Shown piece by piece: positions 1-39,212 of a DNA stretch of 64,000 nt. The stretch comes from a virus (taxonomy: Duplodnaviria > Caudoviricetes), in IMG/VR virus record IMGVR_UViG_3300031555_002371, positions 1-64,000 of that record. One strand, given 5' to 3'. The notes under the pieces are model-generated. The model searched no databases and was not told the DNA's origin. It saw nothing but the letters and a program-made list of their open reading frames with translations. Within the stretch, counting starts at the first letter, position 1. The number at the start of each line of letters is the position of its first letter. Position numbers and translations under genes: made by a program.

Positions 1-117
1 GTTGGATTACAGCCATCACTAACCGATAGGGTTTATGATTCAGATGGTATAGCAACTGCAGTTGCAACGTCAACATTCTTCATGCCATGCTATTTAGTAA
101 AAGAAAAGGAAAAATAA
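1..117 (+). CDS. 3' end of a gene cut by the window edge; resembles the variable-region modules of phage C5 DNA methyltransferases
   Basis: Frame 1 reads VGLQPSLTDRVYDSDGIATAVATSTFFMPCYLVKEKEK*; the QxxxxDRVYxxxGIAxT pattern is common in phage MTase variable regions. Confidence 0.5.
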   Translation, partial: VGLQPSLTDRVYDSDGIATAVATSTFFMPCYLVKEKEK

Positions 118-261
118 ATACTTCTTTCATTCATTTTATAATTATTATATCTCCTAACTTTCGATGTTTGCGAAAAGGAAATATCAATATAAACACCAAC
201 TTTTGATATTGTAAACGCCGAAACTTTCGAGGTCTAAATTACAATAAAAGAAGTATTTTAT
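113..261. repeat. Inverted pair of recombination-site-like sequences bounding a candidate invertible segment
   Basis: Perfect 12-bp inverted repeat AAATACTTCTTT (116-127) / AAAGAAGTATTT (247-258); the sites are AATAAA-TACTTC-TTTCAT and ATAAAA-GAAGTA-TTTTAT, sharing one 6-bp spacer in opposite orientation. Confidence 0.65.
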
Positions 262-278
262 CCACAAATGGTATTACC

Positions 279-1130
279 GTGCTAAGTTTATTTGACGGAA
301 TATCTTGTGGTATGTTGGCTCTTGAAAAGGCTGGCATTAAAGTTAACAAATATTACGCGAGCGAGATTGACGAGTTTGCTATTAAGGTAAGCCAAAAGAA
401 TTATCCTTCGATTATACAGCTCGGAGATGTAAACGAATGGAGAACATGGGATATTGATTGGAGCAAAATTGACTTGCTCATTGGCGGTAGCCCATGCCAA
501 GGTTTTAGTTTTGCCGGAAAGATGCTTAACTTTCAAGATGAACGAAGTAAATTATTCTTCGTGTTTGTCGATATACTTAACCACATAAAAATACATAATC
601 CAGACGTTAAGTTCTTACTTGAAAATGTAAGAATGAAGAAAGATTACCAGGATGTAATTAGCCAACATCTTGAAGTAGAACCTATAAGAATCAACTCCGC
701 ACTTGTTACAGCGGCGCATAGAGATAGATTTTATTGGGCAAACTTCCCAATTACCCAACCAATCAATAAAGGCATTACATTCGATGACATAAATCAAAAT
801 AGTGACGATTGGCTATCCGATACATACATTCAGAAAGTCAAAAATTGGAAAGCGCAACAAGACCCTATTAAGTGCGCAACAACAATCGGAACTGCTTCAA
901 AACTTCCATGTCTAACCGCAAGAGGTTATAACCAGAGTCATAGTGGAATGATATTGATTACCGACGGTAAAAGATATCGCTATCTTACAAACGACGAGGC
1001 AGAACTTGCTATGACACTTCCGATTGGATATACATATGGAATTAAGAACAGAGAAAGAGCAAGGTGCATTGGTAATGGTTGGAGTGCCGATGTGATTGCA
1101 CATATTTTTAATTGTTATAAATCAATCTGA
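279..1130 (+). CDS. DNA (cytosine-5) methyltransferase
   Basis: Motif I LSLFDGISCG, motif IV GGSPCQGFS, motif VI LLENV, motif VIII R-x-R-F-Y-W, motif X GNGW; GTG start without an obvious SD. Confidence 0.92.
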   Translation: MLSLFDGISCGMLALEKAGIKVNKYYASEIDEFAIKVSQKNYPSIIQLGDVNEWRTWDIDWSKIDLLIGGSPCQGFSFAGKMLNFQDERSKLFFVFVDILNHIKIHNPDVKFLLENVRMKKDYQDVISQHLEVEPIRINSALVTAAHRDRFYWANFPITQPINKGITFDDINQNSDDWLSDTYIQKVKNWKAQQDPIKCATTIGTASKLPCLTARGYNQSHSGMILITDGKRYRYLTNDEAELAMTLPIGYTYGIKNRERARCIGNGWSADVIAHIFNCYKSI

Positions 1131-1140
1131 ACAACCACAA
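1124..1140 (+). promoter_or_regulatory. Copy of the dispersed motif AAWTCTGAACAAC just upstream of an RBS
   Basis: AATCTGAACAACCACAA followed by AAGGAG; similar copies at 11401, 15176, 28683, 31606, 33800. Confidence 0.55.
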
Positions 1141-1152
1141 AAGGAGAATGTT

Positions 1153-1670
1153 ATGGTAATTAACAGAGTATGGGCAATGCCCAACAGTAACACTTTTAGC
1201 ATTCCTCCCATCGGAGAGCTTGTCACTCGCTATACATCAGGGGGAGTAAAACAATAGTAGACCCGTTTGCCAATGGTTGCAAAATCGGGACTATCACTAA
1301 TGATTTGAACCAAAAGTTCGATACAACATATCACCTTGATGCGCTTGACTTTTTAAGATTGCTTCCGGATGCTTCTGCCGACGTAGTTTTATATGACCCG
1401 CCATACTCTCCGAGACAAGTCAAGGAGTGCTATGAGGGCGTAGGAATTACGGTCACGGCAGAACATACCAAAGCATCTTGGAGAGCAAAACATCTTGATG
1501 AAATCGCAAGAATCCTTAAACCTGGTGGAGTATGTTTATGTTTCGGATGGAACTCAAACGGAGTTGGAAAAAAGCGAGGTTTTGAGATGATAGAAATTCT
1601 TCTTGTTGCTCATGGTGGTAGCAAGAATGATACGATTTGTACGGTTGAAGTAAAAGGAGAGAACAATTGA
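1153..1670 (+). pseudogene. Adenine-specific DNA methyltransferase-like gene, frameshifted at a G5 tract (possibly phase-variable)
   Basis: SD AAGGAG + ATG 1153 gives MVINRVWAMPNSNTF..SGG, stop at 1257; the -1 frame continues KTIVDPFANG...YDPPYS; the switch point is GGGGG at 1240-1244. Confidence 0.8.
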
Positions 1671-1885
1671 CGATAGTTGCAATTATTTTAGGATGGATGT
1701 TGGTCAACACATGGGTGGCATTAATTTGGTGCAAATTAGACCACACATTTATATCCGAATGGGATGAATACTTTGCACTCTTTATTGTGAGTATTGTATC
1801 CGTTCCTATTATGCTTTTAATTAAACACATTATTATAAAAGTTAAAAAGGAGAGGAAAAATGAAGTACGCAAAAAGCAATTGTAA
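1667..1885 (+). CDS. Small membrane protein
   Basis: Two hydrophobic segments; SD AAGGAG before TTG. Confidence 0.6.
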   Translation: MTIVAIILGWMLVNTWVALIWCKLDHTFISEWDEYFALFIVSIVSVPIMLLIKHIIIKVKKERKNEVRKKQL

Positions 1886-2021
1886 ACACGCAGAAAAGCA
1901 TGACGCAACCCATATTAAATGTGCCAGAGATGGTTCATTAAGAAAAGTTGCAAAGGGCTGTCCTTGTAGAGTCTATGAGGAAACGTGGTTTACAAAGATG
2001 AAAAAGAAGTTGGTCTGGTAA
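1860..2021 (+). CDS. Small hypothetical protein (53 aa, not in ORF track)
   Basis: SD AGGAGAGG + ATG; MKYAKSNCKHAEKHDATHIKCARDG...; fills the gap before the next gene. Confidence 0.5.
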   Translation: MKYAKSNCKHAEKHDATHIKCARDGSLRKVAKGCPCRVYEETWFTKMKKKLVW

Positions 2022-2030
2022 GGAGTAAAA

Positions 2031-2399
2031 ATGGATAGGTATAATGTCGGGCAAATTGTTACAGCAACAGAAGATATTGAAGTTGTTGGTTGTTTCTCAG
2101 ATGAGAAACAGGTAATTAAAAAGGGAACAAAAGGATGGGTAACAGCCTCAAAAGGTTGCCCTGCGCTCTATTTGGAAAACGGTAGTACTTTCTTACTTGA
2201 CAAAGAAAATACTGAGCTTATCGGTTTCGATTCCGAGGGACTTGCAGAGTGGATTTTCCGTCATTTGAGAAATAGAACTCACATTGACGATATGATGGAA
2301 GATTACGATGTTGATGAGGATGATATTAAAAACATTATCTCGGAAGCTCTTGAAGAACTTGAATTTTATCCGGGAGAAGAAACGGAGGATAGAGAATGA
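2031..2399 (+). CDS. Hypothetical protein
   Basis: SD AAGGAG; stop overlaps the metK start. Confidence 0.75.
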   Translation: MDRYNVGQIVTATEDIEVVGCFSDEKQVIKKGTKGWVTASKGCPALYLENGSTFLLDKENTELIGFDSEGLAEWIFRHLRNRTHIDDMMEDYDVDEDDIKNIISEALEELEFYPGEETEDRE

Positions 2400-3454
2400 G
2401 TTACTTCTATAGCAATGAGATTGTATTTAGGGGACATCCTGACAAAGTTGCAGACCAGATTAGTGACGCACTTCTCGATGCTTATTTAGCAATTGACCCC
2501 AATAGTAGATGTGGTATCGAGGTTGTTGGCGGAAAGGGCAAAATTTTTGTCACTGGCGAGGTTACATCTAAGGCTACTATGGATGTTAATGTAGAAGCGG
2601 TTGTCCGCAGCGTGTTGAAAGATATCGGGTATAGAACGGATTATGAGATTATTAACAACATCGGGAAACAGTCACCGGATATCGCACAAGGTGTTGATAT
2701 TGGTGGAGCTGGCGACCAGGGTATGATGTTCGGTTATGCTTGTAGAGATACCGCACAAATGTTGCCAACAGCAATGGTAATTCTTCAAGAATTATCTATG
2801 TTTTACGATGCTCTTTGTCATTCAGATAAGAGATTTCTACCCGATGGAAAAGCTCAAATCACAGGCGAATACAACTCCGATAAGCAATTGGTGAAGATTA
2901 AAGATTTTACAATCTCTTATCAGAACACAGAAGAAGCAAGAGAAGAAACCGATAGAATTCTCAAGGAGTTTACCACAGAACTTTGTGCTGAGTACAATAT
3001 CAAAATTGATTGCTTCCATATTAACCCTACCGGCAAATTTCTTATTGGTGGGTTTGATGGAGACGCGGGTTTGACTGGACGCAAGATTGTTGTGGATGCT
3101 TACCAGTCATTTGCCAATGTTGGTGGTGGTGCATTCTCTGGGAAAGACCCGACAAAGGTTGATAGAAGTGCTGCATATAAAGCAAGACAACTCGCAAAAG
3201 AGTGTTTAATGACTCGCAATGACTTTAAGTGGTGCGAAGTCCAACTTTCTTATGCAATCGGGCTTGAATCTCCTTTGGCGATTTATGTAAGAACCGATAA
3301 AGGAAACTACACAGAGAACCTTAATTGGCTTTATCCTGAATGCACACCAAAACGAATTATTGAAGATTTGCATTTGCTTGATACCAAAAAAGTAAAGTAT
3401 TACTCAACAGCTAAATTTGGACATTTTGGAAACAAGGCGTTTCCATGGGAATGA
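2396..3454 (+). CDS. metK: S-adenosylmethionine synthetase
   Basis: GHPDKVADQISDA, GAGDQG, GDAGLTGRKIVVD, GGGAFSGKDPTKVDRSAAY, FGHFG motifs. Confidence 0.97.
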   Translation: MSYFYSNEIVFRGHPDKVADQISDALLDAYLAIDPNSRCGIEVVGGKGKIFVTGEVTSKATMDVNVEAVVRSVLKDIGYRTDYEIINNIGKQSPDIAQGVDIGGAGDQGMMFGYACRDTAQMLPTAMVILQELSMFYDALCHSDKRFLPDGKAQITGEYNSDKQLVKIKDFTISYQNTEEAREETDRILKEFTTELCAEYNIKIDCFHINPTGKFLIGGFDGDAGLTGRKIVVDAYQSFANVGGGAFSGKDPTKVDRSAAYKARQLAKECLMTRNDFKWCEVQLSYAIGLESPLAIYVRTDKGNYTENLNWLYPECTPKRIIEDLHLLDTKKVKYYSTAKFGHFGNKAFPWE

Positions 3455-3465
3455 GAGGTATAATA

Positions 3466-4113
3466 ATGAAAGTTTTTATTGATCTTGACAAAGTAACTGT
3501 TACTGACGGCAAGGTTATCATTGATGTTGACCCGAACCAGAATGGTTGGTTTGATACTATTCTTGCGGCAAAGAATGGTGTAAAACTCTCCAAACTTAGA
3601 CCCAAAGACGAATTCAAAATCGGAGATGAAGTGTTTATTGTGTTAGAGCAAACCGAAAACGGCACGAGGGTCATTGCCAAGGAGTTTATCTACGACGACA
3701 CACAATTTGGCGACAATTCCAATTGGAAGACATCTTCTATCCGTAAAATCCTCAACAATAAGTATCTTGAGAAGATTGCAACTATCATTGGAGAAAATAA
3801 CATCATATCGATGGATAGAGACCTTACTTCTCTTGATGGTTTGGATGACTACGGAATCTGCACCGACAAGGTTAGTCTTTTAACTGCTACAGAGTATGCA
3901 AAGTATCATAGAATTCTTGGTTTGAAGTCACGCTATCCTAATTGTTGGTGGCTTATTACTCCTGCATCCGCTCCAAGCAATGATTATTCTCGTTACGTTT
4001 GCTATGTCAACTCCGGCGGTATTCTGAGTTGGATTGTCTGTGTCTTTCGCTACGGTGTTCGTCCGTTTTTAAATCTTGAATCTTCCATTTCGGTACTTAT
4101 GAATAAAGATTAA
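3466..4113 (+). CDS. DUF6273-like protein with C-terminal GVRP motif (candidate DGR target)
   Basis: NWKTSSIRKILN...DKVSLLT..EY...WWLITP...GVRPFLNL; start moved to ATG 3466 after SD GAGG. Confidence 0.65.
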   Translation: MKVFIDLDKVTVTDGKVIIDVDPNQNGWFDTILAAKNGVKLSKLRPKDEFKIGDEVFIVLEQTENGTRVIAKEFIYDDTQFGDNSNWKTSSIRKILNNKYLEKIATIIGENNIISMDRDLTSLDGLDDYGICTDKVSLLTATEYAKYHRILGLKSRYPNCWWLITPASAPSNDYSRYVCYVNSGGILSWIVCVFRYGVRPFLNLESSISVLMNKD

Positions 4114-17617: not shown

Positions 17618-17676
17618 TGTGAATGAAATGATAGTTTTATTCACAAAAACTCGCCTTTTGACACCGAAAGTTTCGG
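17618..17676. repeat. Recombination-site-like composite repeat
   Basis: TGTGA-ATGAAA-TGATAG-TTTTAT, 24-bp gap, CGAAAGTTTCG; same layout as the reverse complement of 31645-31702. Confidence 0.65.
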
Positions 17677-31644: not shown

Positions 31645-31702
31645 CGAAAGTTTCGCAGAGTAAAAATCAGATTTTGATAATAAAAACCGCATTTCATTCA
31701 CA
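31645..31702. repeat. Recombination-site-like composite repeat, opposite orientation to 17618
   Basis: CGAAAGTTTCG, 24-bp gap, ATAAAA-ACCGCA-TTTCAT-TCACA. Confidence 0.65.
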
Positions 31703-37898: not shown

Positions 37899-37943
37899 AT
37901 AGGTAACATACTTGTATTGCGGTTTTTTGAAAGGAAAATAAAA

Positions 37944-39212
37944 ATGGCAGAAAGACGCGATACAAAAAATCGTCTCTTAGGAAAAGGTGAATACCAAAAG
38001 AGCGATGGCAGATATATGTATAGATATGTTGATTCAAAGGGAAATGATAGGTTTGTTTATAGTTGGACGCTAACGCAAACCGATAGACCGCCCAAAGGGA
38101 AACGCTCTGATAAATGCTTGCGAGAATTAGAGAAAGAAATTGCCAAAGACTTGCAGGATGAGATAGATTCATTCAAAGCAAAAAAAATGACACTCAACGC
38201 TTTCTACGAGGATTATATTGAGCAGAAGCAGGAGCTAAAAACCTCAACGAGAACCAACTACAAGTATATGTATAAAAAGTATGTTTGGGACTCTATTGGT
38301 CGCAGGAAACTCTCGGAAATCAAATACAGCGACATCAAAAAATTCTACAATCACCTCATTCGTGAGGTTGGTTTCAAGCCGAATAGTATGGAAATAATTC
38401 ACACTATTTTGCATCCCATTTTCGCCACGGCAGTTAGAGACGGTTATATCCGTGTTAATCCTACCGATGGTGTAATGGCTGAAATCAAAAAGAGCAACGA
38501 TTGGGAGAAACCAAAAAGACACGCATTGTCAGTTCAGGAACAAGAAGCATTTGTTGAGTTCGCCAAGTCTCACAGTGTTTATAGCCACTGGCTGCCGTTG
38601 TTCACAGTTCTTCTTGGCACAGGCTGTAGAGTTGGAGAAATCGTTGGTTTGACTTGGGATGATTGTGATTTCAAGAACGGCATTATCAATATTAACCATA
38701 GCCTTATTTACAGACCAGATGAGTTCACCGGCAAGTCTGGGTTCTATATCTCAACTCCGAAAACAAAAGCAGGTGAGCGTGAGATACCGATGTTTGAGGC
38801 TGTGAGAAAAGCATTGCTTAATGAGCGTTTGAGACAGATGCAAGAGGGTTTTAATCAAACTGTCATTGATGGTTATTCTGGCTTTATCTTTTCTAACAGA
38901 TTTAATGGAGTGCTTTCCCCGCACAACATTAACAGAGCGATTGAACGAATTACACGAGATTACAATGTCGCAGAAAGTGAACTTGCGGAAAGGCAAAACA
39001 GAGAGCCTTTACTTCTACCGCATTTCTCGGTTCACAATTTGAGACACACCTTCTGTACTCGTATGTGTGAGAATGAATCCAACATCAAAGTCATTCAAGA
39101 GATTATGGGACATTCCGACATTTCAACGACGATGGATGTTTATAATGAGGCAACTCGTGATAAGAAGAAAGAGTCGTTTGCGGGTCTGGAGGGCAAAATG
39201 AAGATTTGCTAA
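37944..39212 (+). CDS. int: Tyrosine integrase (Tn916-like)
   Basis: N-terminal arm-binding domain GEYQKSDGRYMYRY; TGCRVGE, PKT, HNLRHT, MGHSDISTTMDVY. Confidence 0.95.
   Translation: MAERRDTKNRLLGKGEYQKSDGRYMYRYVDSKGNDRFVYSWTLTQTDRPPKGKRSDKCLRELEKEIAKDLQDEIDSFKAKKMTLNAFYEDYIEQKQELKTSTRTNYKYMYKKYVWDSIGRRKLSEIKYSDIKKFYNHLIREVGFKPNSMEIIHTILHPIFATAVRDGYIRVNPTDGVMAEIKKSNDWEKPKRHALSVQEQEAFVEFAKSHSVYSHWLPLFTVLLGTGCRVGEIVGLTWDDCDFKNGIININHSLIYRPDEFTGKSGFYISTPKTKAGEREIPMFEAVRKALLNERLRQMQEGFNQTVIDGYSGFIFSNRFNGVLSPHNINRAIERITRDYNVAESELAERQNREPLLLPHFSVHNLRHTFCTRMCENESNIKVIQEIMGHSDISTTMDVYNEATRDKKKESFAGLEGKMKIC

Follow-up and report, generated by a model that had tools for sequence, protein, structure and literature searches.

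A 125-bp invertible segment bearing the start codon of a phage C5 methylase, and its probable role as an ON/OFF switch

Inversion of the segment and the start signals that it carries

Does a phage turn one of its own DNA methylases on and off by inverting the piece of DNA that holds the gene's start codon? The question is raised by the first few hundred bases of the window, a 64,000-nt stretch comprising bases 1-64000 of a 156,001-bp IMG/VR phage record (G000), for which an earlier note had proposed such a switch. The features of the locus are as follows, in window coordinates.

1-117, plus strand: upstream ORF, 3′ end, being the final TRD-like piece of a multi-TRD C5 methylase that is fragmented (stop codon 115-117)
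108-135: left recombination site, with outer arm 108-118 (degenerate), spacer 119-124 and inner arm 125-135 (repeat search and half-site alignment)
125-249: invertible segment, OFF as assembled (contig ends, and a unitig of 116-258 joined to both flanks in both orientations)
132-134, minus strand: ATG, the start codon after inversion (flipped right-junction contigs from runs X1, X2 and X13; homologue P0002/L092, assembled ON)
151-155, minus strand: AGGAG, Shine-Dalgarno-like (sequence; also in L092)
186-215, minus strand: promoter-like site, 10/12 consensus positions with an 18-nt spacer (consensus match only)
219-229, no strand: 11-nt palindrome within the segment, one of a dispersed family (17665, 31645, 92400 and four times at 97009-97229)
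239-266: right recombination site, with inner arm 239-249, spacer 250-255 and outer arm 256-266 (repeat search and half-site alignment)
237-1130, plus strand: C5 cytosine DNA methylase, frame open from 237 (PF00145 and TIGR00675)

The two sites on which the proposal was built, AATAAA-TACTTC-TTTCAT (113-130) and ATAAAA-GAAGTA-TTTTAT (244-261), are present in the window letter for letter, as is the 12-bp perfect inverted repeat that they were said to form (core 116-127 / 247-258). A repeat search of the window gave arms of 16 nt at 94% identity (116-131 / 243-258), 111 nt apart. The whole 156-kb genome (37% G+C) holds approximately 15 places with perfect 12-mer inverted pairs 30-400 nt apart, and therefore the repeat by itself is not significant. 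It is the junction evidence and the conservation, not the repeat alone, that show the invertible element to be real.

Inversion is recorded in the ends of the contig itself. Positions 155760-155886 of G000 are a second copy of window 1-127, after which 155887-156001 read as the reverse complement of window 246-132 and not as 128 onward. The last 127 nt (G000:155875-156001) are the exact reverse complement of window 132-258, such that the final 242 nt of the contig consist of window 1-127 followed by the reverse complement of 128-258, i.e. the flipped left junction. The contig starts with the branch k-mer 1-127 and ends with the first k-mer that reverse-complements one already used. Because these ends are expected of a k=127 de Bruijn path round a circle, they imply that both left junctions were present in the reads. 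The genome is circular, with a true length of ~155.76 kb; IMG/VR lists it as linear because the flipped segment breaks the 127-nt end overlap, an example of circularity masked by an inverton that coincides with a contig break. The assembly was not broken at any of the remaining ~14 inverted repeat pairs.

Four public runs (X1, possibly the source run, X2, X7 and X13) were compared with window 1-1700 in the form of Logan k=31 contigs. In X1 the upstream unitig ends at 127, the downstream unitig begins at 247 and a 143-nt unitig is exactly 116-258. Its 48-nt junction unitigs represent the assembled orientation (left, depth 5; right, depth 3.1) as well as the flipped orientation (left, depth 2.6; right, depth 4). 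The runs were seen as contigs, not raw reads, and orientation ratios are rough; on contig depths, assembled to flipped in X1 is approximately 55:45. X13 is a bovine-gut run from a separate study whose strain differs at 11 positions in the 143-nt node, and variants belonging to that strain (at 240 and 144) are carried by both of the flipped junctions found in this run. X1 and X13 (faecal and bovine-gut runs) gave the full set of four junctions, two for either orientation, whilst X2 yielded the flipped right junction (depth 3.3) and X7 the assembled orientation alone, contigs being prone to lose minor variants. Unitigs branch at 127/128 in both X1 and X13, and therefore the exchange point lies within the 12-nt core 116-127. 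The flipped-form junctions that the earlier note had suggested looking for were thus recovered from X1, X2 and X13, and with the contig's own ends and junction contigs from independent samples the predicted inversion is confirmed. Both orientations coexist in one sample, as expected of an inverton (X1, X13 and the contig ends). The 125-bp segment flips in natural populations.

As assembled, the methylase frame is open from 237, following an in-frame stop at 234-236, and neither an ATG, GTG or TTG nor a Shine-Dalgarno (SD) sequence is found between 237 and GTG 279. The lone start in this orientation is indeed, as had been claimed, a GTG inside motif I without an SD (283 aa). In the flipped right junction, the minus-strand ATG (134-132) and four further bases run into 247 onward in the methylase frame. 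AAT and one G (131-128) travel with the ATG, so that the segment gives the first 2⅓ codons, and the outer arm of the right site (256-266) is part of the methylase reading frame. A 48-nt contig present in X1 and X2 matches the predicted flipped reading: the reverse complement of 132-145 joined to 243-276, in which just one base, 246, is changed, as expected. The AGGAG-ATG-methylase fusion foreseen for the flipped state is in frame, its product is 297 aa and its N-terminus matches those of close homologues; the upstream stop codon (115-117), which overlaps the repeat core, is left unchanged by the flip, also as anticipated. The long gap between AGGAG and ATG, already flagged as a caveat, is 16 nt and is kept at the same spacing in L092, making this a weak though conserved candidate start arrangement.

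The promoter-like site at 186-215 points at the methylase only when the segment is flipped. The promoter scan barely exceeds shuffled sequence (3 found versus 1.8 expected), and a consensus scan of 1-420 gave no promoter-like site on the plus strand. Folding of the flipped segment as RNA gave no significant structure (z = -1.85). The segment also contains three direct copies of a 12-nt motif (156-167, 198-209 and 222-233), the third overlapping the palindrome. Single palindromic 11-6-11 sites with half-sites like the switch arms occur at 17618 and 31675, each 24 nt from a copy of the 11-nt palindrome (17618-17675 and 31645-31702), and a genome scan found no spacer-matched partners for them. 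The palindrome and the 11-6-11 sites may constitute a family of operator or accessory sites.

The switched gene matches PF00145 (E 5.8e-33, Pfam) and TIGR00675 (104.8 bits, cut-off 100.65), exceeding the cut-off of each, and its translation has motifs I, IV (PCQ), VI (ENV) and X, which places it in the C5 family; the TRD is short. The best PDB matches are the DNMT3B/3A catalytic domains over the full length of the phage enzyme (DNMT3B, E 4e-29 over residues 12-294), with a far poorer match to M.HhaI (E = 1e-10, N-terminal part only). The enzyme is nearer to the eukaryotic DNMT3A/3B catalytic domains than to M.HhaI or M.HaeIII.

The same layout in related phages

A homologue search of 5.8 billion proteins returned thousands of matches, and N-termini were compared among the best 120 representatives. 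Two length classes are apparent in this set. Approximately 40 short homologues (~272-284 aa) start within motif I, or slightly ahead of it at a TTG that has no SD, and approximately 69 long homologues (~297-302 aa) carry an extra 14-20 N-terminal residues. The DNA of nine proteins' loci shows both forms, and therefore short and long homologues are one gene in two orientations. L092 (85% identity) is assembled ON with a core identical to that of the window. L093-96 are OFF and, when flipped, have the N-terminus seen in the P0032/P0037 group; for L104/105/108-110, which are likewise OFF, the flipped form (AGGAGG, 4 nt, ATG) has that of the P0013 group. L097-100 and L107 are assembled ON and L106 is OFF. 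In two more distant phages, G001 and G006, whose methylases are 42-47% identical, a 15-nt repeat with 110 nt between its arms encloses an SD, an ATG and five codons, and both are assembled OFF. Comparison of the locus in related phages, which the earlier note had recommended, therefore reveals the same layout in eight further lineages, down to 42% methylase identity. Both orientations are common in public assemblies, dozens of independent assemblies being fixed in one state or the other. Among 80 related loci listed with the methylase query, all at ≤62% identity, 2 carry the switch (L075 and L081). Megablast of window 1-3500 found no match among GenBank phages.

Four half-sites from each of seven lineages (n = 28) were aligned, oriented towards the spacer. 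The arm consensus is RATAAAA, its final three positions being A in 28/28 and the preceding RAT occurring in approximately 20/28. Each locus has this arm in three of its four half-sites; the outer-left arm is degenerate and overlaps the upstream stop codon. The spacers differ between lineages (TACTTC, TAGAAC, TGGTGT, TATCTT, TAGTAT, TAGTGT and a seventh in G001/G006). Each of these seven distinct 6-bp spacers is identical to that of its partner site, with the exception of a one-base mismatch in L111/112. Tyrosine recombinases need identity in the overlap for strand exchange, and therefore conserved arms combined with covarying, matched spacers are the signature expected of such an enzyme. The suggestion that two arms around a matching 6-bp spacer represent a tyrosine-recombinase-type layout is upheld by its recurrence in nine lineages. 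Perfect ATAAAA-N6-TTTTAT sites number 6 in the genome against ~0 in shuffled sequence, all of them single, and a genome-wide scan found no other inverted site pair with a common spacer.

In all lineages one and the same segment end holds an ATG that flipping brings into frame, in most cases with an SD (GAGG/AGGAGG) 4-9 nt upstream. A perfect consensus promoter is located beyond the segment, on the upstream side of the left site, in the lineages of L104 and L111. What all lineages share is therefore an exchange of translation-start signals, not of a promoter. The N-terminal extension is variable in sequence except for the site-encoded residues and some homologues have just two residues ahead of motif I, so the extension looks like a by-product of placing a recombination site in the reading frame.

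Several lineages show peculiarities of their own. L111 (1380-1560) and L112 are ON-oriented with spacers one base apart between the sites, and may be locked-ON derivatives. The ON-reading segment of L104 (1300-1520) and L108 opens with a hairpin and then a T run, resembling a terminator. L106 (1392-1543) has a third copy of the core site within the segment, oriented as the left site, and two nested inversions are conceivable there.

Candidate recombinases, mechanism and alternatives

Four proteins matching PF00589 (tyrosine recombinase) are encoded in G000, none of them adjacent to the switch.

37917-39212, plus strand: R1, Tn916-type tyrosine integrase, the only recombinase in the window
G000:69787-70845, minus strand: R2, Xer-like, 352 aa, PF00589
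G000:119306-120268, no strand given: R3, 320 aa, PF00589, with the R...HxxR...Y catalytic residues kept
G000:121630-122631, no strand given: R4, a weak PF00589 match

Of these, R1 is the least likely invertase. A protein like R3 is the only PF00589 protein of G001 (29% identity, E = 4e-25; G001 is 63% complete) and another occurs in G006, whilst R3-like proteins are absent from four switch-less phages with homologous methylases. R2 is conserved in G006 (36% identity). The co-occurrence of R2 with the switch is not separable from that of R3, and the association is confounded by relatedness. NCBIfam and PHROGs name none of R1-R4 as an invertase. No serine recombinase (PF00239), as a serine invertase would be, was found in G000, G001 or G006; a PF07508 match in G000 was sub-threshold and is attributed to chance. 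On these protein matches, the invertase is most likely the phage's own tyrosine recombinase, R3 or R2.

Taken together, we think it likely that a phage-encoded inverton sets the C5 methylase ON or OFF via its start signals. Two inverted core-type sites (7-bp RATAAAA arms, identical 6-bp spacer) would bound the 125-bp segment, which conservative site-specific recombination, most likely by R3 or R2, would flip. The segment would present an RBS, an ATG and the first 2⅓ codons pointing outward at one end and, in this lineage, probably also a promoter. In the ON state these start signals would be fused in frame, through the right-hand site, to the DNMT3-like C5 methylase of 297 aa; in the OFF state, as assembled, the SD-less GTG in motif I alone would remain, with the start signals facing the end of the upstream gene. 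The inversion, the coexistence of both forms in samples, their conservation and the in-frame start are observed directly. Loss of methylase synthesis in the OFF state we infer from the absence of an SD-preceded start in any OFF contig, and methylation probably follows orientation, just as R3 or R2 is the probable enzyme. Phage populations would then be mixtures of methylase-ON and methylase-OFF genomes, and the phage appears, from its genome, to phase-vary its own DNA methylation. Our hypothesis is that this serves as bet-hedging against restriction systems of opposite methylation preference, with some hosts having restriction enzymes that 5mC blocks and others attacking DNA that is methylated.

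The segment might instead be flipped by a recombinase of the host (Xer-like or of another kind), with the phage supplying sites only. The switch has no adjoining recombinase gene, the size of its sites (7-11 bp arms, 6-bp spacer) is like that of dif-type sites and similar single sites are scattered in the genome, all of which this explanation would accommodate. We nevertheless rate it as rather unlikely, given that the phage has four tyrosine recombinases of its own, two of them conserved in distant switch-bearing phages, and that the arms are conserved across phages with possibly different hosts.

It is unlikely, too, that the segment inverts yet OFF genomes also produce the methylase, through read-through or a start at GTG 279. 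The switch would then not be a strict ON/OFF one but would tune the level of the enzyme, swap its N-terminus or chiefly turn the segment's promoter antisense to the methylase gene upstream. GTG 279 does lie in frame and some homologues begin two residues before motif I; as such two-residue homologues exist, a product from GTG 279 might be active if made. Moreover, the OFF promoter-like site and ATG point into the upstream gene. However, GTG 279 is without an SD, L104/105 are without that GTG, motif I of other OFF contigs offers just a TTG or an ATG without an SD, and the in-frame segment ATG is kept in every lineage.

A neutral polymorphism, arising without a recombinase by homologous recombination or template switching at a chance repeat, would be in keeping with the frequency of 12-nt inverted pairs in an AT-rich genome. 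We consider it very improbable, since both states stand at comparable depth within samples, since architecture and arm consensus persist down to 42% protein identity, together with the covarying spacers and the in-frame ATG, and since the other repeat pairs, ~14 in number, left the assembly whole. That the inversion is an artefact of assembly or library preparation, for instance of fold-back chimeras formed at the inverted repeat, is extremely improbable: the first hint did come from a contig end and the runs were seen as contigs rather than reads, but all four junctions occur in independently sequenced samples with strain-specific SNPs, and independent assemblies fixed in one state or the other number in the dozens.

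To our knowledge, textbook programmed inversion in phages concerns tail fibres only (Mu, P1), and we know of phase-variable methylases solely as bacterial devices. The closest phage precedents, Mu Gin and P1 Cin, are likewise phage-encoded programmed inversions that yield two phage subpopulations, but they rely on serine invertases, kilobase segments and an enhancer, and act on tail-fibre genes (host range). The E. coli element fimS (FimB/FimE) is similar in being a short element with short inverted repeats, flipped by a tyrosine recombinase, which carries expression signals for an adjacent gene and sets it ON or OFF. However, fimS bears a promoter only, lies outside coding sequence and has its recombinase genes adjacent, whereas the phage switch carries an SD, an ATG and the first codons, has one site in the reading frame, is phage-borne and targets a methylase. 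Phasevarions (SSR-controlled mod/hsdM) share the random ON/OFF switching of a DNA methylase, but operate by repeat-tract slippage in bacterial R-M genes and not by inversion.

The RecV switches of C. difficile (flgB, cwpV, cmrRST) resemble the phage switch in that segments of ~150-200 bp lie in the 5′ regions of Firmicutes genes and a distantly encoded tyrosine recombinase serves several sites (PMC5386303, PMC6837544). They differ in acting through leader RNA or a promoter and in residing on the bacterial chromosome, none being phage-encoded or giving a methylase its start codon. In Type I hsdS invertons (pneumococcal SpnD39III, PsrA/CreX) tyrosine-recombinase inversion also alters the population methylome (PMC4948785, PMC7672463), but there specificity domains are shuffled between long repeats and the target changes, whereas here a single orphan C5 methylase, and a viral one, would go ON or OFF via its 5′ end. 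Intragenic invertons likewise have one repeat arm in coding sequence and a flip that alters the end of a protein, but have been described in bacterial chromosomes (PMC10028968, PMC9881135). The searchable literature holds bacterial invertons near methylases, Type I hsdS shufflons and intragenic invertons, and a 2026 report describes putative viral invertons, none involving a methylase. A phage methylase switched via its start codon was not found in the searchable literature.

A widespread family of ~150-kb gut phages appears to phase-vary its own anti-restriction methylation with a minimal 125-bp start-codon cassette. If confirmed, epigenetic bet-hedging would join the counter-defence repertoire of phages and the switch would account for the 'truncated' methylase calls in many assemblies. 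The compact 28-bp site pair and the small recombinase candidates would also be of interest as genetic switches.

Homopolymer breaks in neighbouring modification genes

The switched gene lies in a modification island together with an N6/N4 methylase, the fragmented multi-TRD C5 methylase upstream, a DPPY methylase downstream and a SAM synthetase. Several genes are interrupted at homopolymers. The multi-TRD C5 methylase, which has a zinc-ribbon insert, occupies G000:153929-155876, which on the circular genome closely precedes position 1 of the window. Its frame changes at a G7 run (154673) and at G5 runs (154967, 155092, 155539 and 155709); adding one G to each G5 gives sensible TRD or motif IX-X sequence, and the gene calls of relatives are fragmented too. 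An MT-A70-type methylase (DPPW) is split at a G6 run (14644) and a PAPS-reductase-like gene at a C5 run (28829). The MT-A70 gene would be mended by the loss of one G, a change opposite in direction to the others and hence an argument against a sequencing bias that acts one way only. Such breaks may add a slippage mode to the neighbouring phage methylase genes. Tentatively, and with less conviction than doubt, we raise the idea of a multi-locus phage phasevarion, comprising the inversion-controlled C5 methylase and homopolymer-toggled DPPY, MT-A70, PAPS-reductase-like and multi-TRD C5 genes. Were this true, one genotype would give virions with combinatorial epigenetic coats, a form of bet-hedging against both classical and methylation-dependent restriction.

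Lastly, the DPPY N6/N4 methylase (1153-1670) has a one-base split at a G5 run (1240-1244), which may reflect homopolymer phase variation or a -1 frameshift site. In another lineage the same gene is split with G5 in L097/L098 and intact with G6 in L099/L100. Among close relatives, the split form of 121 aa occurs on at least 27 contigs and the intact form of 172 aa on at least 11.
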